Shown here piece by piece: positions 694-63,310 of a stretch of 64,000 nt of DNA. The notes beneath the pieces were generated by a model that saw nothing but the letters and a program-made list of their open reading frames with translations, was not told the origin of the DNA and did not search any database. Every line of letters begins with the position of its first letter. Within the stretch, counting starts at the first letter, position 1. The position numbers were made by a program, and so were the translations under genes. Origin of the DNA: Candidatus Methanophagaceae archaeon GoMg1 (GTDB taxonomy: Archaea > Halobacteriota > Syntropharchaeia > Alkanophagales > Methanospirareceae); contig QBUL01000189.1 in NCBI GenBank assembly GCA_013180605.1, positions 2,483 through 66,482 on the forward strand. The letters are read 5' to 3'.

Positions 694-1701
694 ATGAAAC
701 TGGCATCCGCTTCGGGAAATTTGGAGGTAATTGGACTGGGCGCCTTGAATTACGATGTTTTATATGCCGTTGAGCGCATAGCGAAAGGAGGCGAGGAGGT
801 AGGGATTACGGATGTGAAAAAGGCGCCTGGGGGTTCTGCAGCAAATACAATCGTTGCTTTAGCACGGTTAGGCGTTGATGCGGGTTTCGTTGGCACGGTA
901 GGTAACGATGAAGAAGGCAAACGGATTCTGGAAGACCTTAGGGAAGAAGGGGTGGAGATAAGGATAAAAAAACGTGAAGGTTACACAGGCTCCGCAGTAG
1001 CGTTCGTTGATGCCCGGGGAGAACGAGCACTTTATATCCTTCCCGGTGTGAATGCCCAACTGTGCACAGACGATATAGACCGTGAATTTGTGAACCACGC
1101 GAAATTTCTACACACGAGTTCGTTTGTAAACCGAGAGCAGTTGGAAACGCAGCGTGAATTGGCGAAGCGCATACACAACAAGACAAAACTCAGTTTTAGT
1201 CCCGGTATGCTCTGTTTCAAATACGAACTTGACGATTTGACCGAGCTAATAGAACGAAGCGAAGTGGTTTTTATCAGTGCTGATGAATTGAAATCGGTGA
1301 TAAAGGATACGAACTACGAAAAAGGTGCAGAATTTCTTTTGGACGTCGGTGCCCGGATTGTCTGTGTGACGCTGGGCAGGAAAGGCTGTTATGTCGCTGA
1401 TAGCAGCACGGGAGAATCGCATTTGATAGATGCTTATCCAACGGATGTGGTGGACACGACAGGTGCAGGGGACGCATTCGCAGCAGGATTCTTGTTTGCG
1501 TTGCTGCGTGATAAGAGCCTATACGAAAGTGGAAAGGCGGGCAATTTAGTTGCTTCGCTCTGTATACGCGAATATGGCGGTAGAAAAGGATTGCCTTACA
1601 AGAAATTTATCCCCGCAACGCTACAAAAAGGAGTGAAAAAAAATAAATCGTTGACACAGATTAACGCTTGTGGGCTCTGCCCACATTCCCGCAAGCCCTG
1701 A
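694..1701 (+). CDS. PfkB/ribokinase-family sugar kinase
   Basis: Gly-rich N-terminal motif 'KKAPGGSAANTIVALARLG' and C-terminal 'DTTGAGDAFAAGFL' are PfkB signatures. The last ~20 codons (…KSLTQINACGLCPHSRKP) are encoded by a repeat element (see finding on repeat-encoded C-termini). Confidence 0.8.
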   Translation: MKLASASGNLEVIGLGALNYDVLYAVERIAKGGEEVGITDVKKAPGGSAANTIVALARLGVDAGFVGTVGNDEEGKRILEDLREEGVEIRIKKREGYTGSAVAFVDARGERALYILPGVNAQLCTDDIDREFVNHAKFLHTSSFVNREQLETQRELAKRIHNKTKLSFSPGMLCFKYELDDLTELIERSEVVFISADELKSVIKDTNYEKGAEFLLDVGARIVCVTLGRKGCYVADSSTGESHLIDAYPTDVVDTTGAGDAFAAGFLFALLRDKSLYESGKAGNLVASLCIREYGGRKGLPYKKFIPATLQKGVKKNKSLTQINACGLCPHSRKP

Positions 1702-1830
1702 AAGGGCTTAATTAACACAGATAAAAGGAGCTATACCGTTAAAAATAGCCCAACCCAGCCCAGCAAAAGAAAAAATCAGTGTGAATCTGTGTCTTAAATA
1801 GAAGGAAGTTATACATTATATGCAATAATA
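1637..1830 (+). repeat. Variant copy of the CAGATTAAC promoter cassette. It contains an internal 'gctctgcccacattcccgcaagccctgaaagggcttaattaa' hairpin module and ends in the conserved extended promoter motif AAATAGAAGGAAGTTATACATTATAT.
   Basis: Near-identical cassettes at 9586-9720 and 13766-13880. The hairpin module reappears inverted at 13062-13110. Confidence 0.8.
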
Positions 1831-1887
1831 AAGCAATAAATTCTTATACCCCTAAAGCAAGAAGCTATTTTAGGAAGGTCTTATAAA

Positions 1888-6018: not shown

Positions 6019-7209
6019 ATGAGAGATAAATTACTTATGGCGTACCGGAGCATAAGGGAAAGACGAACTCGCTCGATACTCACCGTGCTGGGTATCGCGG
6101 TGGGAATAGCGGCTATCGTTTCTTTGATGAGCGTTGGCTATGGTATGGAGGAGGCGATAACAGGTGAATTGACGGGGTATGCTGATTTCATCGGGGTGTT
6201 TCCAGCAAAAATAACTGGTACGACCTACGTGGAACTGGGGAGTTTTACTGATAGAGATTTAAAAGACGTGCAGCGGATAGGCGGTATAAAGGAGTTCTCG
6301 GCAATGACGTTCGACTCCGCAGAAGTGGAATACAGGAACAAAAGAGTGCCCATTTTTTTCATCAGTGGTGATACTAAGGAGCTGGAGAGCATGTATGTGG
6401 AGCCCGTAGGGCTCAAGGAAGGGCGGTGGCTCAGAGAGAATGATTATAAAGGCTGCGTCATTGGAGACCGGGTAGCCAATGACTACTTCGATGAAGTTGT
6501 ACACGTGAACGATAAGCTGATAATAAACGGCGAGAAATTTATTGTCGTTGGTGTTTTTGAAAAGGCAAGCACGCTGTATGCCTCTGACATAGATCCTTAT
6601 ATTTTCCTCACGTTGCGTGCTACAAAGGAAGCTCTGCAAACTGATGAGATAAATTACATCATGGTACGGGTCTATGACATAGAGGAAGCGGAAGAGATAG
6701 CAGAGGAGATCAAGGAAGCGATAAATGACAATCATGGACTCGATGATTTCGCCAACGCAATGACGATGGGTAGCATGATAGAAATGATGGGGGATGTTTT
6801 TAATATTATACGTGGCGTTCTGGTTGGAATAGCGGCAATTGCACTCGTTGTTGCATCCATTGGTATCATGAACACGATGTTGATGTCTGTAATGGAGCGT
6901 ACGCATGAGATCGGTGTGATGAAGGCAATCGGTGCGAAGAGCAGCGATGTCCTCTCTCTTTTCCTATTAGAATCGAGTATGGTGAGTCTGGTGGGCGGTG
7001 TGGTTGGCTGTGTACTGGGCGCTGTGGCGGCGAAAGTCATCAGTCTCGGTGCAGGCACTGCATTGGGGATTGAATTTGGTGCGGTTGTAAAACCCGAAGT
7101 GTTACTTGGCGGCATGGTAGTTGCAATGGTTGTGGGCGTTCTAGCAGGGTTCTATCCCGCGCGTAAGGCGTCAAGAATGAGTCCGGTCGAAGCGGTGAGG
7201 CACGAATAA
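6019..7209 (+). CDS. ABC transporter permease, FtsX/MacB-like (N-terminal TM, large extracytoplasmic domain, C-terminal 3-TM FtsX module)
   Basis: 'NTMLMSVMERTHEIGVMKAIGA' FtsX motif; C-terminal 'PARKASRMSPVEAVRHE'. Confidence 0.85.
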   Translation: MRDKLLMAYRSIRERRTRSILTVLGIAVGIAAIVSLMSVGYGMEEAITGELTGYADFIGVFPAKITGTTYVELGSFTDRDLKDVQRIGGIKEFSAMTFDSAEVEYRNKRVPIFFISGDTKELESMYVEPVGLKEGRWLRENDYKGCVIGDRVANDYFDEVVHVNDKLIINGEKFIVVGVFEKASTLYASDIDPYIFLTLRATKEALQTDEINYIMVRVYDIEEAEEIAEEIKEAINDNHGLDDFANAMTMGSMIEMMGDVFNIIRGVLVGIAAIALVVASIGIMNTMLMSVMERTHEIGVMKAIGAKSSDVLSLFLLESSMVSLVGGVVGCVLGAVAAKVISLGAGTALGIEFGAVVKPEVLLGGMVVAMVVGVLAGFYPARKASRMSPVEAVRHE

Positions 7210-8532: not shown

Positions 8533-8796
8533 AAAGAAACAAGAGTATTTTTGCTTCGCAAAAACCACTTAAAGAGTTTTAGTAATCCATGTCAAAGAAA
8601 CCTGTTTTAGATCCAACCTTTTGCTTCTCTAATTATATAGCGGGGAAGGTATCGGAAAACCCGAAGGGGGTTTCTGATTGTTTTAGTGGATTACCTTCTG
8701 CGTACTCTGCGCTCTCCGCTGTAATAAATCGCAGACTATATTTTTAAATAGTACCCTTTATTACTATATAATGCATACATAGTTAACCAAACAAGA

Positions 8797-9507: not shown

Positions 9508-9585
9508 CATAGCACAGCGCCGCATACTATCATGCACAAAATTCGTGGGATTTTTTAACAGACATCGAGAAAATAGACAAGAAAA

Positions 9586-9720
9586 AATAAATTGTTGACA
9601 CAGATTAACGCAGATTAACACAGACAGATGATAAAAATCAACACGGTTAAACTAAAATAAATCTGCGTAAATCAGTGTAAATCTGTGTCTTAAATAGAAA
9701 GAAGTTACACTTTATAACTA
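9586..9720 (+). promoter_or_regulatory. CAGATTAAC cassette, followed by a TAAATAGAAAGAAGTTACACTTTATAA promoter motif
   Basis: The element reads TTGACA-CAGATTAAC-g-CAGATTAAC-a-CAGA…AAATCTGCGTAAATCAGTGTAAATCTGTGTC. About 90% identical to 13766-13880. Confidence 0.8.
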
Positions 9721-9722
9721 CA

Positions 9723-10418
9723 GTGAAACGTAAAGTAATATTAAAATTAGGTGGCAGTCTGATAGAAAAATCACGGGACATCCTGCGGGTTCTTGTAGAT
9801 TATGCCCGTGAGCGTGATGGAGATAAAAATGGAGATTTCACCCTGGTACTGATTCCCGGTGGTGGACCTTTTGCTGAAACGGTAAGAAATATCTCTGCGA
9901 CTATGTCAATACCCGATGAAACAGCACATTGGATGGCTGTTCTCGCAATGCACCAGTATGGGCTTTTTTTGGCTGCTTGTAGCGGAGGTGAAGCCGGGAT
10001 ACCTTTGGTCGAAAGCGAGGATGAGGATGAAATAGACTGTGCTGGACCGATATGCATATTACTGCCCTATAAGATTCTAGAACAGGATGATTGCTTACCT
10101 CATACCTGGGACGTCACGTCGGACACGATAGCTGCGTTTGTCGCAAACAGGCTGGGTGAAAAAAGATTCATAAAATTGACCGATGTAGATGGAATACGTG
10201 ATAAAAAGAGCGGGCATCTTATCGAAAAAATCCGGGCGAACGAGCTGGCGGGGGAACAGGCAGCTGGTCTGAATTGTATTGATGCGGAGCTTCCAGGATT
10301 TTTAATGCAGACCAAAATGAGCTGCATTATTGTAAACGGCAACTACCCAAACAGGATAATAGATGCAATCGAGGAGAAAGAGAACGTGAACAAGACGGTC
10401 TGCACAAAAATCTTTTAG
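9723..10418 (+). CDS. Amino-acid-kinase-family protein (UMP-kinase / MfnE / isopentenyl-phosphate-kinase-like). GTG start. Exact substrate not assignable.
   Basis: 'VILKLGGSLI' phosphate loop, 'LIPGGGPFAE', and 'HTWDVTSDTIAAFVANRLGEKRFIKLTDVDGI' resemble the archaeal UMPK/IPK fold. There is no ProB-type 'VSSGA' motif. Confidence 0.65.
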   Translation: MKRKVILKLGGSLIEKSRDILRVLVDYARERDGDKNGDFTLVLIPGGGPFAETVRNISATMSIPDETAHWMAVLAMHQYGLFLAACSGGEAGIPLVESEDEDEIDCAGPICILLPYKILEQDDCLPHTWDVTSDTIAAFVANRLGEKRFIKLTDVDGIRDKKSGHLIEKIRANELAGEQAAGLNCIDAELPGFLMQTKMSCIIVNGNYPNRIIDAIEEKENVNKTVCTKIF

Positions 10419-11335
10419 AGTGCAGATGTCGCAGAAGCTTTCTTTCTACGAGAACGCGGACGTGGTCGTGGGGAAAGAGAATCCACATCCAAGTCTAACC
10501 CTTTTTCCAGTTCCTTATACCTATTTCGGATTGTAATCTCCGTTGTACCTACTACCTTGGCTATTTCCTTCTCCGTTCGGTACTCGCCACTTAAAACCGC
10601 GGCAATGTATATCGCCGCTGCTGCTGTTCCTATTGGTGCCCAGCCCCTCGCAGTTCCCGTTCCCTCATTCCTCTTTAGTATCTCTATTGCCTTTTCCCTT
10701 ATCGCCTCGCTTAATCCTAATGCGGAGCAGAACCGAGGAATGTAATGCGATGGGTCAGCAGGGGCAATCTTCAATCCGAATTTCCTTAAAAGGAAAATAT
10801 ACGCACGCCTTATTTTCTTCAGGGGGCTTCTTGACACCCGCGCAATTTCCTTCAGCGTTCGTGGAATCCCATTTTGCCTGCAAATAATGTACAGCATTGC
10901 TGAGACCAATTCTTCTATACTGCGTCCCTTAATCAAATTTCGTTTCGCCGCTTTTCGGTACAGCACAGAAGTCATCTCTTTAATATCATTCGGCAGCTTA
11001 AGTGCGCATGCCATTCTATCTATCTCGATAAGTGCGAAGGCAAGGGTCTTCTCGCTACTGTCCATGTTTACCCACTTTAATCTCTGTATCCCGGCGGGTA
11101 ATTTTGGCGTTGGTGTGCTCAGCCCTTTATCATGAATTCTATAACTCATACCCGGACCTGTTCTTACCCTTTTTGATGCTTGCTCGGAATCGTACGCACG
11201 CCATTCTGGTCCGAGGTCCACGAGATTCTCCGCTATCACCATCCCGCAGTTGGCACAGTACAGTTCTGCATGCTTAGAATCAGACACAACGTTTTTTGAT
11301 CCGCATTCTGGACATATTTTTAGTTTGTTTGCCAT
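10415..11335 (-). CDS. tfb: Transcription initiation factor IIB (TFB)
   Basis: N-terminal Zn ribbon 'CPECGSKNVVSDSKHAELYCANCGMV' and two cyclin folds. Start placed at MANKLK (the six-frame ORF reads through upstream). It has an unusual Arg/Pro-rich C-terminal tail 'SPRPRPRSRRKKASATSAL'. Confidence 0.9.
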   Translation of the reverse strand: MANKLKICPECGSKNVVSDSKHAELYCANCGMVIAENLVDLGPEWRAYDSEQASKRVRTGPGMSYRIHDKGLSTPTPKLPAGIQRLKWVNMDSSEKTLAFALIEIDRMACALKLPNDIKEMTSVLYRKAAKRNLIKGRSIEELVSAMLYIICRQNGIPRTLKEIARVSRSPLKKIRRAYIFLLRKFGLKIAPADPSHYIPRFCSALGLSEAIREKAIEILKRNEGTGTARGWAPIGTAAAAIYIAAVLSGEYRTEKEIAKVVGTTEITIRNRYKELEKGLDLDVDSLSPRPRPRSRRKKASATSAL

Positions 11336-11379
11336 ACCAGAGATGTTTATATTTTTTCTGTTATATAATACTTTCGTTT

Positions 11380-11430
11380 TTATTGTATATAAAGTGTAAC
11401 TTCCCTCTGTTTGAGACACGGATTTTTTCT
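11380..11430 (-). promoter_or_regulatory. tfb promoter carrying the same extended motif, TCTCAAACAGAGGGAAGTTACACTTTATATACAAT (on the minus strand)
   Basis: Reverse complement of 11388-11425 matches the cassette's 3' motif. Confidence 0.6.
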
Positions 11431-12990: not shown

Positions 12991-13145
12991 GATAGCGGTT
13001 TGGCGGTTTAGACGGTTAGCGGATTGCTCAAAAGCCCTGAAACCTAAAACCGGACACCTGTTTGGTCTGTGTTAATTAAGCCCTTTCGGGGCTTGCGGGA
13101 ATGTGGGCAGAGCTCCCTTAGCGTTCATCCGTGTCAACAATTTAT
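12991..13145 (+). repeat. Composite of three repeat families: internal fragment of the MITE-like element, inverted hairpin module (13062-13110), inverted start of the CAGATTAAC cassette (13110-13145)
   Basis: 'gcggtttggcggtttagacgg' matches 18945-18975. 13062-13110 is the reverse complement of 1676-1725. 13113-13142 is the reverse complement of 'aaataaattgttgacac(a/g)gat'. Confidence 0.7.
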
Positions 13146-13684: not shown

Positions 13685-13765
13685 AAACTTTTTCTTATTT
13701 ACTTTACGATATACTAATTATGTATTTACCCAAATATTTTTGTGTTAGCAGAACGAACGGAAATA

Positions 13766-13880
13766 AATTGTTGACACAGATTAACGCAGATTAACACAGA
13801 TGATAAGAATCAACACGGTTAAACTAAAATAAATCTGCGTAAATCTGTGTCTCAAATAGAAGGAAGCTATACTTTATATA
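13766..13880 (+). promoter_or_regulatory. CAGATTAAC cassette, followed by a TCAAATAGAAGGAAGCTATACTTTATATA promoter motif
   Basis: Near-identical to 9586-9720. Confidence 0.8.
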
Positions 13881-13882
13881 CA

Positions 13883-15142
13883 ATGAAAAAGGGGCACATA
13901 TCAAAAATGACGAATAACACGATATATATCATTGACGTCACAAACAGAGACGGTGTGCAGACATCGAAATTGGGCTTAGCGAAGTTAGAGAAGACCATGC
14001 TGAACCTTTACCTGGATGAGATGGGTGTCTTCATGAGCGAGTTCGGTTTCCCAGTCACGAGGCACGAGACGAACTATTTGAATGCCAATCTGGCGTTAGC
14101 AGAGATAGGTGCTCTGAAACGCATACGACTTAGCGGGTGGTTGAGAGCAATAAAGGGGGATGTCGAAGAAGCTTTTCGATTGGTGCCGAAACTGAAGCAC
14201 GTTAATTTGAGTATATCAACATCTAAACAGATGATAGAGGGCAAATTCAGGGGAAAATTCGGCTGGAAGGACATAATAAGAGAGATGTGCGAGGCAGTTG
14301 ATGCAGCGAGGGAACACGGTGCAGAGACTATTGGAGTCAACGCAGAAGACGCTTCGAGGACAGAACTCGAACGGCTGATAGAATTTGCCGAAGCTGCAAA
14401 ACAGCATGGTGCAGACCGGATAAGATACTGCGACACGCTCGGCTATGACGACTCGTTCACCATTTACGAGCGAGTAAAAGCACTCGCAGAGGCGGTGTGT
14501 ATTCCCATCGAACTGCACTGTCACAACGATTTGGGTATGGCAGTCGCCTGCTCGATTGCGGGCGCCAAAGGAGCAATGGATGCGGGTGTTGATGCGTACA
14601 TTAACACCACGATTAATGGACTGGGCGAGCGAGCTGGTAACGCAGACCTGGTTTCGACAATACTCGCGGTAAAGAAAGCAAGTGGTTTTGAACACAAATA
14701 TCGGTTACAGGAGGTAGATTTAAGCCACGCATGGCGGATCTGCAACTACGCTTCTCTTTCTTTTAGCGTCCCTATCCCGGTCAACCAGCCTGCGGTAGGC
14801 GATAACGCCTTCGCCCATGAATCCGGGATACACGTTGATGGGACGTTAAAAGACAGTAGAAATTATGAACTGTATGACTACACAGAAGTAGGCAGAGGGC
14901 ATATCGAGCAGATTGAGACGGGTAGGCTTATAACAACGGGAGAATATTCGGGAATAAAGGGGTTCAAGAACGTGGCAGGTAAATACGAGTTGGAATTCCG
15001 AGATGACAAAGAAGCTCGTGAAATACTAGAACTCGTGAGGTATGCGAACGTCCACACACAGAAGCCTGTGACGGAGGACGAAATGAAGTTCATTGCAAAA
15101 TACCCGCAGCAGGCAAGAAAGATTATGTCGGTGCAACCATAA
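13883..15142 (+). CDS. LeuA/NifV-family acyl-CoA:2-oxoacid condensing enzyme; candidate Re-citrate synthase given the aconitase + IDH genes immediately downstream
   Basis: 'DVTNRDGVQT' and 'HCHNDLGMAVA' HMGL-like motifs. Start ambiguous: 13847, 13883 or 13907, depending on which TATA-like octamer is used. Confidence 0.7.
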   Translation: MKKGHISKMTNNTIYIIDVTNRDGVQTSKLGLAKLEKTMLNLYLDEMGVFMSEFGFPVTRHETNYLNANLALAEIGALKRIRLSGWLRAIKGDVEEAFRLVPKLKHVNLSISTSKQMIEGKFRGKFGWKDIIREMCEAVDAAREHGAETIGVNAEDASRTELERLIEFAEAAKQHGADRIRYCDTLGYDDSFTIYERVKALAEAVCIPIELHCHNDLGMAVACSIAGAKGAMDAGVDAYINTTINGLGERAGNADLVSTILAVKKASGFEHKYRLQEVDLSHAWRICNYASLSFSVPIPVNQPAVGDNAFAHESGIHVDGTLKDSRNYELYDYTEVGRGHIEQIETGRLITTGEYSGIKGFKNVAGKYELEFRDDKEAREILELVRYANVHTQKPVTEDEMKFIAKYPQQARKIMSVQP

Positions 15143-18849: not shown

Positions 18850-18900
18850 AATATAGTCATTCCGAAAATTATTAACCACAGATTACACAGATTTATTTAA

Positions 18901-19040
18901 CTTGACAATGCCAGATTAACCGCAGAGTTCACAGAGAGTGCAGGAGATGGCGGTTTGGAGGTTTAGCGGGTTAGAACGGACTAACACAGGATACCTAACA
19001 CCTAATTCCCTCTGCAGACTCTGCGTTCTCTGCGGTGAAT
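18901..19040 (+). repeat. MITE-like element with terminal inverted repeats (TTAACCGCAGAG…CTCTGCGGTGAA); flanked by degenerate CAGATTA motifs at 18871-18900 and an inverted CAGATTAAC doublet at 19092-19122
   Basis: About 85% identical to the reverse complement of 53627-53754. Related copies at 21451-21586, 30033-30136, 31055-31219 and 60634-60774. Confidence 0.75.
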
Positions 19041-19575
19041 TTTGAAATGCGACACTGTCAAATTAACTCTAACATTATTGATTCTGACTGTCAATCTGTG
19101 TTAATCTGCGTTAATCTGTGTCATCAATTTATTTTTTCAGATACGTTGCCGCGATCCCAAATCAGTGTGCCTGTCTCATGGACACGCTATTCAAGCGAGC
19201 AAGGAGATTCTTCACGGTTGATGCACTGTGACGGCTTCCATTGTAGACAAAATAAAGTCGTAAGCTAAGTTAAGTTTCTTTATCTCCATGGGAAGAGGAT
19301 GGTCCTGGCGCCATTTTTTTTTTGGTAGAGTGTGTCGTCCTGTTCGGCGCTCAGATCAGCGACACATCCACTGGCATGGCCAATAATGAGCTTAATGGCA
19401 CCAATATTGCATAAGAAGGGCATTTAAGCTTACAGTTGATGATATGTAGGTGGCACATCTAATTCTGTTCAGGTGTTTATAATAAAGGAATAAATTATTG
19501 TGGGTCCAACGACATTGCCTAAATCAAAATATTCGCTAGTTTTATAAGGAATAAAAGCGATATTAACAAGTAAAT

Positions 19576-21450: not shown

Positions 21451-21586
21451 TTACCGCCGAGATCACGGAGAGCGCTGAGATGACGTGAAGGTATGAGTTG
21501 TAAGTAAGCCAAACTCCTCAAACCTGAACCCTCAAACCTCACACCTACGCTGACTCTCTGTGTTCTCTGCGGGCTTTGCGGTGAGT
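21451..21586 (+). repeat. MITE-like element, subfamily with internal 'aaggtatgagttgt' and 'aacct-aaacct' tracts
   Basis: TIRs 'accgccgagatcacggagagcgctgag' and 'ctctctgtgttctctgcggg…gcggtgag'; close relative of 60634-60774. Confidence 0.7.
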
Positions 21587-24667: not shown

Positions 24668-24775
24668 TTCTTGTTGTATATAAGGTATAACTTCTACTTA
24701 TCCAAGACGCAGATTTACACTGATTTAATTTCTTCTGCGTTAATCAGCGTTAATCTGTGTCAATAATTAATTTTA
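24661..24775 (-). promoter_or_regulatory. Inverted copy of the CAGATTAAC cassette. Its promoter motif (reverse complement of 24661-24700: ATCTGCGTCTTGGATAAGTAGAAGTTATACCTTATATACAAC) points leftward into the 3' end of the DNPH1-like gene and toward the U32 gene.
   Basis: Reverse complement of 24700-24775 is 'ttgacacagattaacgctgattaacgcag…aatcagtgtaaatctgcgtc', the cassette consensus. Confidence 0.6.
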
Positions 24776-29978: not shown

Positions 29979-30000
29979 TGTAAACAATCGTCAGATTATC
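29966..30000 (+). repeat. Short tandem repeat (CGTCAGATTAT), about 2.7 copies, straddling the Fic stop codon
   Basis: Seen directly: 'aatcgtcagattatcgtcagattatcgtcagg'. Confidence 0.6.
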
Positions 30001-30032
30001 GTCAGATTATCGTCAGGTGGGGCACAGTCTAA

Positions 30033-30136
30033 AAATATAGTGATTTATCACCGCGGAGAGCGCCGAGTCCGCAGAGTTTTAAGACTGTTTCAATCGTTGC
30101 TCGTTTTTTCTGGTGCCTCTGCGTTCTCCGTGTGCT
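30033..30136 (+). repeat. MITE-like element (subfamily with internal 'cttaagactgtttcaatcgttgctc'), with shared 5' flank 'aaaat(a)tagtgatttatcaccgc'
   Basis: TIR 'tcaccgcggagagcgccgag…ctctgcgttctccgtgtgctctgcggtga'; paralog of 31055-31219. Confidence 0.75.
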
Positions 30137-30214
30137 CTGCGGTGATTTTTGAGGATATAGCAATTTCACTGAAAAATTTGACAGTGCCGTCAGGTGGTAA
30201 AAACGGATAAATAA

Positions 30215-30985: not shown

Positions 30986-31054
30986 AAAACCATATTGCTC
31001 GAAGTTCCTTCCGATCAAAAGAAAAGGCATTTTTTATCCACGAGGCGACACTAT

Positions 31055-31219
31055 CTAAAAATCAAGTGATTTATCACCGCCGAGATCGCAGAGACCACAG
31101 AGTCTTAAGACTGTTTCAATCGTTGCTCAGATTTTCTGACACAGATTTACACTGATTTACGCGGACTTATATCTGTGTCTATAATTTATGTCTCTGCGTT
31201 CTCCGTGTGCTCTGCAGTG
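31055..31219 (+). repeat. MITE-like element with a nested CAGATTA-type element ('tgacacagatttacactgatttacgcggacttatatctgtgtc') inserted in its middle
   Basis: Same ends as 30033-30136, with a ~55-bp insert at 31137-31190. Confidence 0.7.
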
Positions 31220-31280
31220 AAATTTAAGGATATATATAGCAATTTCGCAGATTAAGAATAGGGCGATTGCTCGCCCATTC

Positions 31281-32196
31281 TCATCTCAGAACGGTACGTG
31301 AAAGTTTCCCCTCATACCGCTCAAGCATTTCATAACCCTTTCTGTATCGGGCAGCAGTTTGGTTCCGTGGCATTTGGTCTTTTGATTTTAGTTTAACTGC
31401 TCTTGTAATTCTGGCTTGCAGCCTGTTAACATGTTTTTCAGCCTTTTTCCAGTCGATATCCATCCACCTGATTTTTGGTTGAATGTCTGTAAGTCTCTCG
31501 CCTATTGTAGGCGTAATTGAACTACTTACATTCACAGGTTTGCCTCCATGCATACAATGAAACACCTTTCGGTAAGTCAGCACCCTTTCGAGTTAGGGCA
31601 AATTTTGAACCCCTATACGCCTCATTACAAGATGTCATTCGCTTTTTACCGATTCCTCTACCCTATATGCCATCGTTTACCCTTACGAGGTCCCTACCCA
31701 GCGATTCCGGGAGCATATAGGGCTTACCAAGTTCTACATCGCAGATAACTATGAACGCCTTAGAAGCCATCTGTGAGCCGAGAACCGTTTGTCCATCCAC
31801 CATAACGTCCCAGTAGCCGTTATGGCCTGATTCCGCACCTTTTGGTCTAAGCGTATCAACCCAATTTCGCTTATTCTAATTTACGACTCCCACAATGGTT
31901 CGCATTACACTCTTCATAGCGTTCTTATCCTGGCAGTTGATCTGAGCTGGGTTCTCGGATTTTTCCACGTTGTCCTGCAAGCTTACCACGCAAGCGTTAC
32001 CCCCGGCGTGTTCCGCAGTAGGATTACCCCTGATGGATGGGGTAGCCACAAAGCAATCCGCGATGCAACTTCTTGTCAACAAACTGGAAAATTAGATAGT
32101 GCCAGAAACTTTAGCTTACGACCTTACGACCGTGCTATTCTTTGGGGTTAGTTGTCCTCTGGCGGAACTGGGATACAACCCTGAGAGGATTCGCCG
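31281..32196 (-). mobile_element. 5' portion of a group II intron (RNA domains I-III plus the first ~100 codons of the intron-encoded reverse transcriptase), truncated at its 3' side
   Basis: ORF 31281..31583 (minus): '…IDWKKAEKHVNRLQARITRAVKLKSKDQ' is the conserved N-terminal 'W..I.W…V..LQ.RI..A' segment of group II IEPs. The ~600 nt upstream (minus orientation) is structured non-coding RNA-like sequence beginning near GTGACG at 32196. Confidence 0.5.
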
Positions 32197-32469
32197 TCAC
32201 CAGGTAAATCTCGCAGTGCTGGTATCAAAGCATGATAAAAGTTCTTGGTCAGATAGACCATGCCATTGCTGAAGCACTAACAGCTTGACCATTAACACCT
32301 CATCGAGGTTTGGTCTGCCGCCTCGCTCGCTCCTGTTCTCATACATCTCCCCCACTATTCGACGAAAAGCTCCCCAGTCTATCACTGACCCGATCTCCAT
32401 TAGCCTGTCTCCGAGCTGTTTAACTCGCTCATACTCCTCATTAAGTGCAAAATCGATAATGGACTTCAT
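32197..32469 (-). pseudogene. N-terminal fragment of an IS5-family DDE transposase, interrupted by the group II intron remnant
   Basis: 'GRPNLDEVLMVKLLVLQQWHGLSDQELLSCF' is the IS5/DDE_Tnp_1 N-terminal motif (GRP…L…LLQ.W..LSD.EL). Confidence 0.5.
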
Positions 32470-32820
32470 GTATATGTTTATACCGATAACAACATATAAC
32501 CTTTTACGCTTTTAGCGCTTTGAAGCTCAATTTGTGTATCTTTTTTCTCATGATTGGTTCCATCAGCTCCCGTTGGTTATATGATTCTTTAACTGTCTTC
32601 TTCAAGGAGTGGGGGTTTTTCAAAATTTTCTTAAGGTTAATATCGAGTTGGATGATATGTCTTTGAAAGAGGTAAAATCAATGGCATTCGTAATAAAAAA
32701 TGTTATATATGATCAAGCATAGTTAATAACATAGCAGTATACCCGAGTGTCCCACCTTCATTCCGAAGTCAACTGGAAAAATGCTTGTTATAGTACAAAT
32801 GGCAATCAAGACATTTTGAA

Positions 32821-36134: not shown

Positions 36135-37175
36135 TCACGCTTTCCTTCTGTGCCTAAGCACCAAATACGCAACTGCAAGGAGTCCAGCAATAGCAAAAAC
36201 GGCTTCAAATCCTGGTGTTGGAGTTGGCTGAGGTGACACTGTTGGAGTTGGCGTGGGAGATGGAGTTGATGGTGGACCCGGCGAAGGCGCTACAATCACA
36301 CTTGGCGTTATTGTTGATAGAGGCGTGGGCATAGGGGAGAGGGTTGGTGTGGGGGTTATAACGGGCGTAGGAGTTGGCGCTGGCGTGGTGTCTGGTGCTC
36401 CACTTCCATCCTTTCCCCCGCCATCTCTACCATCAGATGACGGTGTTGATGTAGGAGAAGGCATTGGACTCGGAGAAGGTGAAGAGGTTGGAATTGGTGT
36501 GGGTTCAGTAAGAACAATTTTAACTGTCCTTTCTATTCCTCCAGCAGTAATCAAAAATTCACCAAGAGGGACACCCCCTGTATTTATGTCAAGTTCAAAA
36601 TCACCATTTGAATCAGCATTGACTTTAATCGACATGCCAGTTGTCAGGATTACAGAAGTTGCCTCATCTGCTACCGCACCGTATACCTTAACATTTCTCT
36701 TGCCCTCGATATCGATTGTATCCCCTAAAATTGATAACGGAAGCGAAATAGAAAGTGTAGCAATACCATTCGTTGCTTTTTTGGGTCCTTCTAGGGGGTA
36801 TTTAAATGTCCCAAAGCCAAGAATTGGTATCGGGCCTAATGAAACTCGAATATCTTTTATATTCTCAGCAGTTACAGAAAATCTTTTTTCACCAGCAGGG
36901 AAGTGAATGTCATTGAATTCACGAGCATATTTAGCATCTGATACAGGTAAAGAAATCACAAATGATGATTTTAACCATACCTCTTCGTTTGGCGATGCCT
37001 TCCCTGATATTGATAACGTCTCACCTTGTACAACTATTTGAGGGTTTACATTCAGTCCAGTTACGCTTGCGCCAGAAATTGTTACAGAAGCTATACCAAT
37101 AAACGCACAGAGTAACAACAGACCAATGCAAGATGCTACTTTAATATGTTTCATGTTCATCTCCATCTCAATCAC
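36135..37175 (-). CDS. Cell-surface (S-layer-like) protein with a Pro/Thr/Ser linker and a PGF-CTERM archaeosortase sorting signal
   Basis: C-terminus 'PTPTPGFEAVFAIAGLLAVAYLVLRHRRKA' (PGF, then TM, then a basic tail). Linker 'TPIPTSSPSPSPMPSPTSTPSS…PTPTPVITPTPTLSPMPTP'. Confidence 0.7.
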   Translation of the reverse strand: MIEMEMNMKHIKVASCIGLLLLCAFIGIASVTISGASVTGLNVNPQIVVQGETLSISGKASPNEEVWLKSSFVISLPVSDAKYAREFNDIHFPAGEKRFSVTAENIKDIRVSLGPIPILGFGTFKYPLEGPKKATNGIATLSISLPLSILGDTIDIEGKRNVKVYGAVADEATSVILTTGMSIKVNADSNGDFELDINTGGVPLGEFLITAGGIERTVKIVLTEPTPIPTSSPSPSPMPSPTSTPSSDGRDGGGKDGSGAPDTTPAPTPTPVITPTPTLSPMPTPLSTITPSVIVAPSPGPPSTPSPTPTPTVSPQPTPTPGFEAVFAIAGLLAVAYLVLRHRRKA

Positions 37176-37202: not shown

Positions 37203-38348
37203 TTAATATAATATTTTAATAGCTGGAATCCAATCATAATATACCTTTCCATTTGCAGCCTCGAATTGTGTGCATGTGATTGTTCCCCCGGTCACATTTG
37301 CCGTGCGTTCATGTATGATTTGTGGATAAGAGCCTGTGTGAATGGTGTAGTTGTATGTTTCCCCTGCATCGAGCGTAATTTCATCAAAAGTTATATTATG
37401 CCAATCTCCTCTATATCCAGTACAATTTGCTTCTACAATAACTCGGGTATCATTCCAGATTTTTACTCGTTCTGTGTGCCCACCTGTACCTGGACATGGA
37501 TACGTATATAGTTTGGATACCGTAATTGTTTGATTTGGCTTTATTGTCCCGTGGTGTGTTCCACAGATACTGGGATAAGGATTTTCTGGCGACCCTGTAT
37601 CGAATACTGGCGTTGGTATAGGTGGAGTTGGTGTAGGAGAAGGCGTTGGACTTGGAGAAGGTGGGGTGGTTGGAGTTGGTGTGGGTTCAGTAAGGACAAT
37701 GCTAACTGTCTTTTCTATTTCACCCGCGGTTATAAAAAATTCACCCGTCGGGACCCCCTCGGTAGTAATATTGAGAGAAAAATCACCGTTTGAATCGGCG
37801 GTGACTTTGATTGACATATTAACATTCAGGGTTACAAAATTTGCATCCTCTGCTACATCTCCATATATCTTAACGTTTTTTCTGTCATTGATATTAATAA
37901 TTATATTCTCCCAGGTTATCGGAAACGAAATAGAAATAGTGGCGGTGCCATTAGTTGCTTTCTTAGGTCCTTCCAGAGGATATTTAATGGTCTGTCGGAA
38001 TACCGGACTTAATACTATTCGAATATTTTTTATATTCTCAGCGGTTACAGAGAATGCTTTCTCACCAGCAGGGAAGTAAATACCATTGAATTCACGAGAA
38101 TATTTAGCATCAGAAACAGGTAAAGAAATCACCGATGATGAACTTATCCATATCTCTTCGTTTGGCGATGCCTTTCCATATATTGATAACGTCTCACCTT
38201 GCACAACTACTTCTGGGTTTACATTCAGTTCAGTTACATCTGCACCTGTGATAGTGATAGTTATGAAAAATGCAAATGTGAACATCAACGCTAAAGCAAA
38301 TATGGTAAAAATCCCATTTTTTTTCTTCATCTCTATTCTTTTCTTCAT
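37203..38348 (-). CDS. Cell-surface protein paralogous (N-terminal ~230 aa) to 36135..37175, but ending in a soluble 'ETYNYTIHTGSYPQI…WIPAIKILY' domain instead of PGF-CTERM
   Basis: 'NVNPEVVVQGETLSIYGKASPNEEIWI' vs 'NVNPQIVVQGETLSISGKASPNEEVWL'. Its C-terminal domain is shared with 32821..34719 and with the pseudogene at 54849. Confidence 0.6.
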   Translation of the reverse strand: MKKRIEMKKKNGIFTIFALALMFTFAFFITITITGADVTELNVNPEVVVQGETLSIYGKASPNEEIWISSSSVISLPVSDAKYSREFNGIYFPAGEKAFSVTAENIKNIRIVLSPVFRQTIKYPLEGPKKATNGTATISISFPITWENIIININDRKNVKIYGDVAEDANFVTLNVNMSIKVTADSNGDFSLNITTEGVPTGEFFITAGEIEKTVSIVLTEPTPTPTTPPSPSPTPSPTPTPPIPTPVFDTGSPENPYPSICGTHHGTIKPNQTITVSKLYTYPCPGTGGHTERVKIWNDTRVIVEANCTGYRGDWHNITFDEITLDAGETYNYTIHTGSYPQIIHERTANVTGGTITCTQFEAANGKVYYDWIPAIKILY

Positions 38349-40112: not shown

Positions 40113-41437
40113 TCTAATGCGCCGCTCCTTCTAATCGTTTCCAAAAGGTCCGAAGGTCCCAAATCGAAAGTAGGAACTATTCCATTCAGTCTTTTTATAA
40201 CCTCTTCTCTTTCCTTATATCTCCCGTAAAGCCATATAAGTGCTTCCCTGTCCAGTCTCGCCTCGTCGTAAAACAAAATGGGATTAGGCGTCAGGAGCAG
40301 TATTTTATACCCTTTTCTCAATTCCAATAAAATCTTTGTCAGTTCGCTCGTATTCGCAGTGATGTCAGAAATAAAAATCAAAAAAGCCGTGGATGGAAGA
40401 GAGCTTATCGCCTCTATCAGTCCGGTAGCGGAACTCCTTCTCCCCTTTATCGCTGGCAATATCTTCTTAATAAACTTCCTGCTTTCTTCTTTTAATTTCA
40501 ACTTCTTCTCCTGTAAGGGCAACTTTATCCCCATAAGATTTGTAGGTATAGTTCCTATCTTCAGCGATGCTGCTATCTTCTCCACCTGCTCAGCACCTTT
40601 AGTTCTCGCTGCTTCTACCCTCTTAACCCCGTAATCATCATATACTATCAATCCTGCCCGGCAGTTTCTTAAAGCATAAGTGAGTTGAAGCGTCAGAGTA
40701 GTTGCAAAATCTATCTTTGAGCTCTTTATCCCCTTTCTCATCTCTTTACCCGCATCCAAAACTATATATATATCCCCCTCCGTTTCCTTCAAGAAATCCT
40801 TAACTATCAATTCTCCAAGCCTCGTTGTCGCCTTCCAGTCAATATGTCGTCGCTCATCGCCGGGCTGGAACTCCCTCAGCGAATCAAATTCCACCGTCTG
40901 TAAACCAAAGAAGGTTTGATACACTTCGGTGAACTTGTGCGTCTGTTCCGCTTCGGTCTCCTCTTTTATTCTGTCTAAGTTCGGGTACACCTCAACCTCT
41001 TTCTCTGACTTCGAATCAGGCATAAAATCCTCGCAATAAAATTCCCGTAAATCCTTTGCTCTTATCCTGGGACCCTTTATTTTAAATATTCCCCTCACGG
41101 GTGTAATAAAATATTCCACCTCCTTTACCTCACGGGCACTCAAAAACAGCGAAGCCTTGTCGGCTTTAAATCCTGCCGGTAAATTCTCTAAAACTTCTAT
41201 TTTCGATTTCTTATTGCTGAGATTCTTCACTCTCAGCCTCGTTTTTACTCGCGCCCCATCCTTCAACTTCCTATCTATCGCTCTCTCCGATTCTATCCGG
41301 GGTGAAAACTCCACACGAAGATATATTAAATAGAGTAAAATCGGTGCTGCAAGCAAAGCAGGGAAAACATTTCTGAAGAAATATCCCTGCACGAAAAGCA
41401 AGAAAACCAGAAGCAACAAAATATCTTCTCTCTTCAT
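40109..41437 (-). CDS. DUF58-family protein (vWA-like, MoxR-associated), N-terminal TM
   Basis: Position directly downstream of MoxR; the length and 'FQPGDERRHIDWKATTRLGELIVKDF' motif are typical of DUF58. Confidence 0.65.
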   Translation of the reverse strand: MKREDILLLLVFLLFVQGYFFRNVFPALLAAPILLYLIYLRVEFSPRIESERAIDRKLKDGARVKTRLRVKNLSNKKSKIEVLENLPAGFKADKASLFLSAREVKEVEYFITPVRGIFKIKGPRIRAKDLREFYCEDFMPDSKSEKEVEVYPNLDRIKEETEAEQTHKFTEVYQTFFGLQTVEFDSLREFQPGDERRHIDWKATTRLGELIVKDFLKETEGDIYIVLDAGKEMRKGIKSSKIDFATTLTLQLTYALRNCRAGLIVYDDYGVKRVEAARTKGAEQVEKIAASLKIGTIPTNLMGIKLPLQEKKLKLKEESRKFIKKILPAIKGRRSSATGLIEAISSLPSTAFLIFISDITANTSELTKILLELRKGYKILLLTPNPILFYDEARLDREALIWLYGRYKEREEVIKRLNGIVPTFDLGPSDLLETIRRSGALE

Positions 41438-41498
41438 ATAACCACCTGATTACACAGATTTTCACAAGATTCCTTTTTTTCCTCCAAACTATACATTT

Positions 41499-53000: not shown

Positions 53001-53678
53001 ATGGTAAAAAGAACCGACTTGAACACGGACAGATATTACAAAAGAGCGAAGGCAGAAGGTTACAGGGCACGTTCCGCGTTTAAACTGTTGCAAATCGTCA
53101 ATAAGTTTGAAGTGATAAAAGAAGGCGACATTGTTGTGGATCTGGGTGCGGCCCCTGGCGGATGGTCGCAGGTTGCAAAAGAGATAGTTGGAGAGAAAGG
53201 AGTAGTTATAAGCGTGGATTTGCAGCAAATAGAACCAATAGAAGGTGTGGAATCACTAAAAAGCGATATAACAAACGAAATGGAAACGATAAAGACGATC
53301 AAAGAGACGCTATTAATGAAGATTTCGAAAGGAAAGGATCTGGTGGACGTCGTTTTATCGGATGCATCGCCAAAGTTAAGTGGGAACAGAGATTATGACC
53401 ATTTTCGGTCATTTGAGCTGGCTAAATCCGTATTGAACGTTGCTTCTGCGCTTTTACGTAATAACGGCAGTTTTGTTGCAAAAATATTCCAGGGTGTTTG
53501 CTATAACGAATTTTACAAGGATGTACAGGAAAAATTCGCGTATACAAAGGCATATTCGCCAGCAGCCACACGTAAAAGAAGTGCAGAGGTTTACGTGATA
53601 GGAAAAGGTTTTCTTGGCAATCAAAATTCACCGCAGAGAACGCTGAGTTCGCAGAGAAAATTAGATGTCAGGTGTTAG
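53001..53678 (+). CDS. rlmE: 23S rRNA (uridine-2'-O)-methyltransferase RlmE/FtsJ
   Basis: 'YRARSAFKLLQIVNKFEVIKEGDIVVDLGAAPGGWSQVA' is the SAM-binding motif. The last ~17 codons lie inside a MITE-like element. Confidence 0.85.
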   Translation: MVKRTDLNTDRYYKRAKAEGYRARSAFKLLQIVNKFEVIKEGDIVVDLGAAPGGWSQVAKEIVGEKGVVISVDLQQIEPIEGVESLKSDITNEMETIKTIKETLLMKISKGKDLVDVVLSDASPKLSGNRDYDHFRSFELAKSVLNVASALLRNNGSFVAKIFQGVCYNEFYKDVQEKFAYTKAYSPAATRKRSAEVYVIGKGFLGNQNSPQRTLSSQRKLDVRC

Positions 53679-53754
53679 TAGCTGTTCTAAACCGCTAAAC
53701 TGCTATCCTCTGCGCTCTCTGTGAACTCTGCGGTTAACCGGCTGGTATTGTCAA
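53627..53754 (-). repeat. MITE-like element (inverted relative to 18901-19040); its left end supplies the rlmE stop region
   Basis: Reverse complement is ~85% identical to 18901-19040. Confidence 0.75.
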
Positions 53755-59104: not shown

Positions 59105-59196
59105 GCACCAAAATCTAAACAAATTCAAATATCTAAATTAAAAATTCTTGTGGAAATCTGTGTAATCTTGTGGTTATAAAAGGAGCAAAGCACGGT

Positions 59197-60294: not shown

Positions 60295-60510
60295 ATGCAT
60301 GAGTCAGCTACAATTCAAGACGTATACGAAGCGCTGAAGAGACTGGGAGAGAAGATGGCTACACGAGAAGATATTGAAGCACTCGTTGATTCCGTTGAAA
60401 TTATCAGCAATCCAAAAACGATGGAAGCACTCCGAAAAAGTGAAGAAGATATTAAAGCAGGCAGGATTAAGGCAATCACTTCTGTTGAAGATATGCTTAC
60501 TGAGCTGTGA
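60295..60510 (+). CDS. Orphan antitoxin-like small protein (RelB/Phd-type C-terminal motif)
   Basis: '…EEDIKAGRIKAITSVEDMLTEL' is a typical antitoxin C-terminus. No toxin gene adjacent. Confidence 0.4.
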   Translation: MHESATIQDVYEALKRLGEKMATREDIEALVDSVEIISNPKTMEALRKSEEDIKAGRIKAITSVEDMLTEL

Positions 60511-60633: not shown

Positions 60634-60774
60634 CTACCGCCGAGATCACGGAGAGCGCTGAAATGACAGAAGGTATGAGTTGTGAGTTGTCAGATGTGAG
60701 TTGTGAGTAGCCCTGGAATGGAACCTAAAACCTCGCACCTATACTGTCCTTCTGTGCTCTCAGCGGTAAACAAG
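60634..60774 (+). repeat. MITE-like element (same subfamily as 21451-21586)
   Basis: Shared 'accgccgagatcacggagagcgctga(g/a)atgac…aaggtatgagttgt' and 'aacctaaaacct' tracts. Confidence 0.7.
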
Positions 60775-63274: not shown

Positions 63275-63310
63275 TGTATTCTCGTGGAAATCTGTGTAAT
63301 CTTGTGGTTC
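63275..63310 (+). repeat. Third short repeat family, 'cgtggaaatctgtgtaatcttgtggtt' (also at 59143-59170, and inverted at 41440-41470)
   Basis: 27/28 identity between 59143-59170 and 63282-63309. Confidence 0.7.

Follow-up and report, generated by a model that had tools for sequence, protein, structure and literature searches.

Why do short palindromic sequences of one kind recur between genes in the genome of Candidatus Methanophagaceae archaeon GoMg1, a member of the anaerobic methanotrophic archaea of group 1 (ANME-1)? We have analysed a stretch of 64,000 nucleotides of this genome (GenBank assembly GCA_013180605.1, contig QBUL01000189.1, positions 2,483 to 66,482 of the forward strand), which as a whole is called the window below and contains six complete and two partial elements of this kind, divided into three subfamilies and all non-coding. 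The elements are about 100-170 bases long and intergenic. The isocitrate dehydrogenase encoded in the window is 100% identical to that of ANME-1 cluster archaeon GoMg1, and an archaeal origin is also indicated by a gene for ABCE1/RLI and by promoter motifs of TATA type. An earlier sequence-only reading of this DNA had described them as resembling miniature inverted-repeat transposable elements (MITEs) and as lying only after stop codons. On balance we favour the view that they are non-autonomous, non-coding, palindromic dispersed repeats, i.e., foldback cassettes which resemble both MITEs and the hairpins formed by doublets of repetitive extragenic palindromes (REPs and REPINs), and which would be moved in trans.

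Architecture of the elements

The motif TCACCGCAGAG, with at most one mismatch, occurs 11 times in the window, compared with 0.68 occurrences expected from shuffled sequences. In a periodicity scan using the 7-mers C[GA]CNGAG (left-type) and CTCNGYG (right-type), these were found in arrays with a period of exactly 9 nt and 2 or 3 units per run, a right-type run lying 35-90 nt past each left-type run, and six complete copies were recovered where the sequence-only reading had placed elements (Table 1). Three 9-nt units, C[G/A]CNGAG plus NN, make up each arm, and two arms are opposed around a variable core, with the consensus TTYACCGCAGAG-NN-CGCAGAG-NN-CGCAGAG ... CTCTGCG-NN-CTCTGCG-NN-CTCTGCGGTRAA. 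Copy 1 has the left arm TAACCGCAGAG-TT-CACAGAG-AG-TGCAGGA, a core starting with GCGGTTTGGAGGTTTAGCGGGTTAG, and the right arm CTCTGCA-GA-CTCTGCG-TT-CTCTGCGGTGA. TCACCGCAGAG, taken for the terminus in the sequence-only reading, is the outermost of three tandem 9-nt units and is internal in subfamily 3.

The division into three subfamilies by internal sequence is borne out by pairwise matches of the cores, which are 86-97% alike within subfamilies (repeats D5, D9, D10, I3, and I4 of the window repeat comparison): copies 1 and 5 constitute subfamily 1, copies 2 and 6 subfamily 2, and copies 3 and 4 subfamily 3. The inverted orientation reported for the copy at rlmE was found again, and the gene names given earlier to the neighbours agree with Pfam assignments (M48 peptidase, isocitrate dehydrogenase, Hsp70, Fic, tetrapyrrole methylase, and FtsJ/RlmE). 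The true ends of subfamily 3 are GGCACAGTC...GACAGTGCC, with the CGCAGAG arms lying internally, 27 and 43 nt from the ends of copy 3. The outer ends of this copy (GGCACAGTCTAAAAAT... and ...AAAATTTGACAGTGCC) form a 9-nt terminal inverted repeat with one mismatch, and the terminal inverted repeats of the subfamily-3 shell, GGCACAGTC and GGCACTGTC, stand at 30021 and 30188. For subfamilies 1 and 2, the outer ends are not defined by an empty site. Both fragments mentioned in the sequence-only reading exist; the first is half a subfamily-3 element, and the second lacks arms and is not a full element.

Gain, loss, and replacement between close relatives

Comparison with contigs of close relatives (designated L121 to L132) shows that intergenic sites acquire, lose, or exchange whole cassettes. 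Between the Fic gene and cobA, the spacer of the Joint Genome Institute contig L126 (cobA 93% identical) is empty, with CGTCAGGTGG joined directly to TAAAAACGG, and the window carries 168 additional bp, namely copy 3, flanked by a 9-bp direct duplication GTCAGGTGG. The same spacer in L125 is occupied by another hairpin family in place of copy 3. Directly past the Fic gene, at 29989-30020, there is an 11-nt tandem repeat (cgtcagattat twice, then cgtcaggtgg), which is conserved in L125 and L126 and whose last unit is the target duplicated by copy 3.

At the 3' end of icd, L122 (icd 94% identical) has an orthologous subfamily-1 copy with the same flanks at 11290-11406, and L121 (icd 97% identical) has a bare subfamily-3 hairpin nearly filling a spacer of 105 nt, so that the arms of this subfamily occur also without the outer shell. 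A convergent CoA-binding gene comes next in both L121 and L122, and dnaK in the window, indicating a break of synteny at the element in the window. The icd-dnaK junction (18850-19575, compared with L121 1317-1420 and L122 11213-11486) is made wholly of repeat modules.

The rlmE and cobD genes abut in L132, which represents a second empty site, and are separated in L129 and L130 by an element of another family (family B, described below); the window has copy 5 together with only the promoter-proximal part of family B. The rlmE reading frame enters copy 5 for 51 nt and reaches a stop at 53678, giving a protein of 225 aa against 212-215 aa in relatives, an extension of about 10-13 residues. In the divergent spacer at a Ni-insertion gene, L122 has a subfamily-3 hairpin and L121 a family-C hairpin (see below), with identical flanks. 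No target duplication was seen at the rlmE/cobD, icd, and Ni-insertion sites on comparison with relatives.

The proposal of a non-autonomous transposable element agrees with sequences that are non-coding, multi-copy, and palindromic, and that show an empty site with a 9-bp duplication at one copy; the anatomy attached to that proposal was mis-stated.

The same arms in bacteria, viruses, and plasmids

One genome per GTDB species (596 Gb in total) was scanned with the pattern CTCNGYGNNCTCNGYGNNCTCNGCGGT, which forces one arm only and for which about four chance matches are estimated at uniform composition. At least 120 matches were obtained, from about 18 bacterial phyla (Acidobacteriota, Chloroflexota, Planctomycetota, Verrucomicrobiota, Cyanobacteriota, Nitrospirota, Thermodesulfobacteriota, Gemmatimonadota, Pseudomonadota, Myxococcota, Elusimicrobiota, Latescibacterota, and others) and from one Methanophagales metagenome-assembled genome (MAG). 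Among the genome matches listed, exactly three units are present in 180 of 187 arms, and an inverted partner lies within 500 nt for 112 of the 187; the cores of the hairpins are unrelated between taxa. A scan of the viral sequences in IMG/VR also gave at least 120 matches, with an inverted partner in 34 of the 120 listed, and with the sequence of the pattern reversed as a control, at identical composition, 30 viral loci were matched, not one of which has an inverted partner. From the bacterial and viral matches listed, 64 distinct hairpins were compiled, which have a median length of 118 nt (range, 67-525 nt) and the flank consensus TTT[C/A]-ACCGC ... GCGGT-[G/T]AAA.

These controls refute the view that unrelated short periodic or low-complexity sequences resemble a family by chance, to which we give practically no weight. 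A 9-nt periodicity does arise in coding tandem repeats, the control pattern did match its 30 viral loci, and some matches have 7 or 9 units; however, the difference in inverted partners between the control and the real pattern, the excess of the motif over shuffles in the window, the cores shared pairwise within subfamilies, and the conservation of an orthologous copy all contradict it.

A classical cut-and-paste MITE, with TCACCGCAGAG and CTCTGCGGTGA as terminal repeats and a DDE transposase gene having the same ends, would account for the inverted arms, the small size, the lack of an open reading frame (ORF), the presence of several copies, and the 9-bp duplication at one of them. We nevertheless regard it as unlikely, since the arms are triple direct repeats rather than a single repeat, and since the duplication and the true ends of copy 3 lie 27 and 43 nt outside them. 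Furthermore, no arm pair surrounds a transposase-sized segment in the more than 240 loci listed, where the maximum is about 525 nt. Target-site duplications at copy borders, for which a search had been recommended, are present as the 9 bp at copy 3, but none beyond shuffled-partner expectation adjoins the arms of the 64 hairpins. Subfamily 3, in addition, resembles a classical MITE in its terminal inverted repeats and in the 9-bp duplication and empty site of copy 3.

The absence of target duplication, the cassette-like replacement at fixed sites, and the location of hairpins of 67-525 nt directly past ORFs recall integron attC sites, which are imperfect hairpins of about 60-140 nt lying directly 3' of ORFs and have the cores RYYYAAC and GTTRRRY. 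In about a third of the copies, the flank TTTAAC...GTTAAA resembles these cores, and a subset has AAC...GTT at the stem base. The elements might accordingly be attC-like, or else hairpins on which a tyrosine or HUH recombinase acts in single-stranded form, marking the 3' ends of exchangeable cassettes, but this is very unlikely. In the majority variant, TTCAC...GTGAA, the AAC/GTT that is invariant in attC is lost (of the 64 hairpins, 25 have A and 27 have C at position -1, and 20 have T and 34 have G at position +1), copies in the window have 1-2 mismatches to each attC core, and the three strongly conserved 7-mers per arm are foreign to attC. Moreover, the neighbours are housekeeping genes instead of promoterless cassettes, and neither an integrase gene (intI) nor a cassette array was found in the window.

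A BLAST search with an arm against annotated phages and plasmids gave matches in Gemmatirosa and several cyanobacterial plasmids, and no annotated feature lies under the plasmid or phage matches. The plasmid hosts carrying arrays of the 9-nt type (type A) are the cultured Trichormus variabilis ATCC 29413, Oscillatoria nigro-viridis PCC 7112, and Gemmatirosa kalamazoonensis. Six single right-type arrays (CTCTGCGTTCTCTGCGTTCTCTGCGGTTAA) are found in the high-GC viral contig L154, on the gene strand and without a left arm, mostly 5-30 nt past stop codons; an array at 11300-11350 of this contig is split by a tiny hairpin, and the terminal GGTTAA is shared by a variant array, CCGTTCAATCCGTGCAATCCGTGGTTAA.

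At the gathering threshold, the elements of the window and those of 18 bacterial and 17 further loci are covered by no Rfam family, and a search around copies 1 and 2 at E<=10 gave chance-level matches only. The Rfam family Acido-Lenti-1 (RF01687) is found at L021 53-98 and L072 6474-6519, in 8-kb loci that also contain two of the bacterial hairpins, without overlap with them. A search of open-access full text for the arm sequences, the 7-mers, and inverted repeats of ANME-1 returned only primers and unrelated papers, which is not proof that the family is undescribed.

Position relative to genes, folding, and conservation

When ORFs are mapped simply, 27 of the window's spacers of 30 nt or more are tandem, 9 convergent, and 8 divergent. 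The six copies occupy 3 tandem, 3 convergent, and no divergent spacers, a distribution that is not significant alone, and copies in tandem spacers are placed past the stop of the preceding gene and ahead of the promoter of the following one. For the bacterial hairpins among the matches listed, crude gene calls gave 12 convergent, 15 tandem, and 4 divergent spacers, and 13 of the 15 tandem hairpins are no more than about 50 nt away from the stop of the gene before them. A location only after stop codons, as claimed in the sequence-only reading, is too strong a statement in view of these window counts and of the L122 copy in a divergent spacer; the 3'-end bias is visible in the bacterial loci and is a tendency, not a rule. 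Single arrays inside ORFs of high-GC contigs, a class depending on crude ORF calls, were distrusted and not used.

No Pfam family recurs among the 89 ORFs nearest to hairpins from the genome and viral scans, and the elements are not tied to any neighbouring gene family. No tRNA genes were found in the window.

All six copies fold as long interrupted hairpins on either strand (z-scores, -1.6 to -6.6), in which 7-bp helices are split by 2x2 internal loops, and the two strands fold about equally well. For the 64 hairpins, arm-to-arm complementarity at the free positions is 230 of 455, compared with 197 +/- 9 in GC-matched partner shuffles, so that the pairing signal is significant but weak, conservation being stronger for the motif than for the pairing. 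G:T and C:A mismatches in the paired arms number 90 and 71, respectively. A strand-specific RNA structure, considered as a candidate, was rejected on these balanced mismatches and on folding energies without consistent difference between the strands.

Copy 1 differs between the window and L122 by 6 substitutions in about 115 aligned positions and by four indels, and its right flank is 96% identical. The difference at the four-fold sites of icd is 19% (81% identity), as against about 5% at copy 1 and its flanks. Four of the substitutions between these orthologous copies are in the arms, and none of them is compensatory.

These data bear on the explanation that the hairpins are primarily functional 3'-end elements (transcript ends, mRNA stabilisers, or arrays bound by a conserved RNA- or DNA-binding protein) which are selected after stop codons and whose spread is secondary. 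The spacer distribution of the bacterial hairpins and the sense-strand arrays of L154 speak for it, as do the stronger conservation of the copy 1 region than of the icd four-fold sites and the runs of T4-T5 past the right arm of copies 1 and 3, oligo-T being the archaeal termination signal. On the other hand, copy 5 is inverted relative to its upstream gene and has its T-run on the wrong strand, L126 and L132 have no element at the same sites, one copy stands in the divergent spacer of L122, and the C-terminus of RlmE has been rewritten by a copy. Together with the equal folding of both strands, these facts count against a strand-specific RNA role, and the similar mismatch counts and the non-compensatory arm substitutions point in the same direction. 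We consider this explanation doubtful, though well above the other alternatives to dispersed mobile cassettes discussed so far.

Search for a mobilising enzyme

In a Pfam search of 22 ORFs of the window, no intact transposase was found. A truncated N-terminus of an IS5-type transposase (DUF772) adjoins copy 4 at 32203-32475 on the - strand; its 81 homologues are all remnants of 54-159 aa, and in ANME-1 and relatives the gene seems to persist in remnant form only. No matching ends were found at the homologues, five carrier contigs of which represent the same degraded locus. The autonomous partner with matching terminal repeats that the sequence-only reading had suggested was not found in the window or in the contigs with DUF772 homologues, a small genome sample, nor was any parent insertion sequence whose matching ends enclose a transposase gene.

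For the favoured mobile cassettes, the following mechanism is proposed. The conserved triple arrays are most simply read as putative protein-binding sites, each arm offering three of them to a recombinase or transposase supplied in trans, as at the ends of Mu or Tn7, and the enzyme would act on paired ends or on an extruded hairpin. The hairpin core would move without target duplication, and by analogy its mobility appears closer to that of REP/REPIN, IS200/IS605-type, or recombinase-type systems than to DDE cut-and-paste. The shell of subfamily 3 would be moved by an enzyme of the IS5 family; its ends (GGC..TGT..AA) and the 9-bp duplication resemble those of the IS903 group of that family. 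Copies would persist mostly in the interval from a stop codon to the following promoter, since an insertion does least harm there.

Several observations weigh against this mechanism. No autonomous element or cognate enzyme was found, and a duplication is present at only one of four variable sites; the others look like replacement of the whole spacer, which homologous recombination between strains could bring about likewise. The post-stop bias in the bacterial loci also fits a functional 3' element, and the low divergence of copy 1 is compatible with purifying selection, which would mean function, and equally with gene conversion or recent exchange. Single arrays without a partner in Microcoleus and L154 indicate that the hairpin is not always needed.

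Related repeat families and nested insertions

Family B has the same layout with a 10-nt unit, GACACAGATTA-ACGCAGATTA-ACACAGAT ... ATCTGCGTAA-ATCAGTGTAA-ATCTGTGTC, i.e., ACNCAGATTW three times per arm. Its members lie directly upstream of start codons and are followed by TTAAATAGAAGGAAGTTATAC, which by its look is archaeal-promoter-like. Since family B separates rlmE and cobD in L129 and L130, which abut in L132, it may be a mobile promoter cassette. The family-B pattern CNCAGATNNNCNCAGATNNNCNCAGAT gave 119 viral loci, in which it forms hairpins of the type TTAAC-CGCAGATGNA (three times) ... GTTAA, with the same termini as type A. Copy 1 lies within the loop of a larger family-B hairpin (left part 18877-18892, right part 19094-19120), the core of copy 4 holds a nested family-B-like half hairpin at about 31137-31187, and B-like arrays nested in type A hairpins are also found in a Latescibacterota MAG and in one viral contig.

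A wider grouping of these families is possible but tentative: a pan-prokaryotic superfamily of triple-unit hairpins in archaea, about 18 bacterial phyla, and their viruses, comprising type A (unit CGCAGAG+NN, 9-nt period) and type B (unit CGCAGAT+NNN, 10-nt period), both ending in TTAAC...GTTAA. One horizontally mobile protein family would read the three tandem sites of each arm, and members would have been co-opted repeatedly at gene boundaries, type A after stop codons and type B, with promoters, before start codons.

Copy 4 has the left end GACACTATCTAA at 31047 and the right end TTAGATAGTGCC at 32092-32103, a position it reaches because a degenerate group II intron of about 835 nt (about 31250-32082, - strand) interrupts its right outer part. 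Rfam domains of the intron are Intron_gpII at 31252-31324 and D1D4-7 at 31951-32044, and its ORF of 100 aa has an RVT_N domain only. A group II intron as the reason for the elements was considered and rejected, this being a single degenerate insertion in copy 4, and 18 bacterial hairpin loci being free of introns.

A third family of hairpins or arrays, family C (CCACGAGATTACACAAGATT... and TCTCGTGGAAATCTGTGTAATCTTGTGGTTATAAAAGG), adjoins TATA-like stretches in front of genes. The window also has, at 1674-1726 and 13061-13113, two copies of a small nested hairpin module, GTGGGCAGAGC...GCAAGCCCTGAAAGGGCTTAATTA, in inverted orientation (94% complementary), and the part CAAGCCCT-N4-GGGCTTAATTA of this module recurs in a Thermodesulfobacteriota MAG (L021 124-142); the first 600 nt of L021 are a mosaic of several small palindromic repeats. 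For the module, the sequence CAAGCCCTNNNNGGGCTTAATTA gave no viral match and only one bacterial locus, L021. Two paralogous neighbouring genes on the - strand, 36135-37175 and 37203-38348, are 77-83% identical over long stretches (repeats D2, D3, and D13) and hold coding repeats of the GGTGTTGGAGTTGG type, with a PGF-CTERM sorting signal in at least the first.

Table 1. Positions of the hairpin elements, their target duplications, and related arrays in the window and in other sequences
Feature	Sequence	Positions	Strand	Remarks
Copy 1, subfamily 1	window	18917-19038		68 nt past icd stop; periodicity scan, folding
Copy 2, subfamily 2	window	21452-21584		between convergent dnaK (+) and nucleotidyltransferase gene (-); core AAGGTATGAGTTGT...AACCTCACACCT
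Copy 3, subfamily 3	window	30021-30188		complete 168-bp insertion; triple-unit hairpin core 30048-30145
Copy 4, subfamily 3	window	31047-32103		hairpin core 31074-31220; two insertions inside
Copy 5, subfamily 1	window	53628-53736		inverted relative to copy 1; rlmE/cobD site
Copy 6, subfamily 2	window	60635-60769		between small + ORF (60295-60510) and convergent ABCE1/RLI (-)
Target duplication GTCAGGTGG, left copy	window	30012-30020	+	flanks copy 3; single in L126 empty site
Target duplication GTCAGGTGG, right copy	window	30189-30197	+	flanks copy 3
Solo half of subfamily-3 element	window	8697-8755	-	one arm and outer end, GGTACTATTTAAAAATATAG...CAGCGGAGAGCGCAGAGTACGCAGAA on - strand
Armless relative of subfamily-1 core	window	12991-13060	+	9-nt periodic (CGGTTTRGN); same place in L122
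Family B	window	9585-9729, 13761-13891, 24706-24774, 606-646, 1638-1833		
Family B	L125	870-960		
Family B	L129	3640-3740		
Family B	L130	1530-1640		
Family C	window	41425-41480, 59135-59190, 63280-63309		
Family C	L127	2120-2260		
Family C	L121	about 6575-6700		
Single arrays	L154	1754-1780, 3219-3245, 5263-5289, 5921-5947, 11407-11433, 13055-13081		
Type A array	plasmid NC_007412.1	177078-177104		unannotated
Type A array	plasmid NC_019730.1	120051-120080		unannotated
Type A arrays	plasmid NZ_CP007129.1	9 places		unannotated

Comparison with known systems and significance

REPs and REPINs, which are associated with the REP-associated tyrosine transposase (RAYT, a Y1 HUH enzyme), share many properties with the present elements: they are short, non-coding extragenic palindromes in many copies, their doublets form a larger mobile hairpin, they are enriched after genes and between convergent genes, and they cause no target duplication. 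Two inverted units forming an extragenic hairpin are found here as well. The REP enzyme is encoded elsewhere in the genome as a single copy; among the scanned ORFs of the 64-kb window, no RAYT and no Y1_Tnp domain was seen. REPs are single imperfect palindromes of 20-40 nt tagged by GTAG or CGTC (PMC3733652), whereas the arms described here consist of three direct 9-nt units without such a tag, and the ends of the 64 hairpins are TTYACCGC...GCGGTRAA. REPs are also lineage-specific and mostly vertical, whereas the present arm sequence crosses phyla and domains.

MITEs such as Correia/NEMIS, ERIC, RUP, Nezha, and SM1-4 of Sulfolobus are matched by subfamily 3 in its size of 168 bp, 9-nt terminal repeats, 9-bp duplication, empty site, and lack of an ORF, but differ in that the CGCAGAG arms are internal to the shell, occur also free of it (L121), and have no parent insertion sequence found for them. 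The small dispersed repeats of Nostoc and relatives, which Elhai and colleagues reportedly described in 2008 as units of 21-27 nt found in cyanobacteria only, are said to be similar in being tiny repeats nested in other hairpin repeats, with no obvious target duplication and no known enzyme; their sequences differ, and so does the triple-unit architecture. The Foldback (FB) elements of Drosophila are alike in architecture only, having inverted arms of short tandem sub-repeats around a variable middle, but they are eukaryotic, of kilobase scale, and of other sequences.

No known machinery accounts for an arm design that is found across domains and in viral contigs, and this is the most interesting result of the analysis. 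REPs and MITEs are normally lineage-specific, whereas here the arm sequence and the three-unit layout are common to an archaeon, many bacterial phyla, and viral contigs. This sharing suggests either a mobilising enzyme that has been transferred very broadly or a conserved host factor that has so far not been connected with these sites.

In ANME-1, the elements mark intergenic regions that have been rebuilt, as seen in the swaps of spacers, the break of synteny between icd and dnaK, and the rewritten C-terminus of RlmE, and promoter-like sequence has been brought by a related hairpin family between genes that once abutted. The elements are thus relevant to the annotation and evolution of the genomes of uncultured methane oxidisers, in which they are a source of assembly breaks and of mis-called small ORFs.

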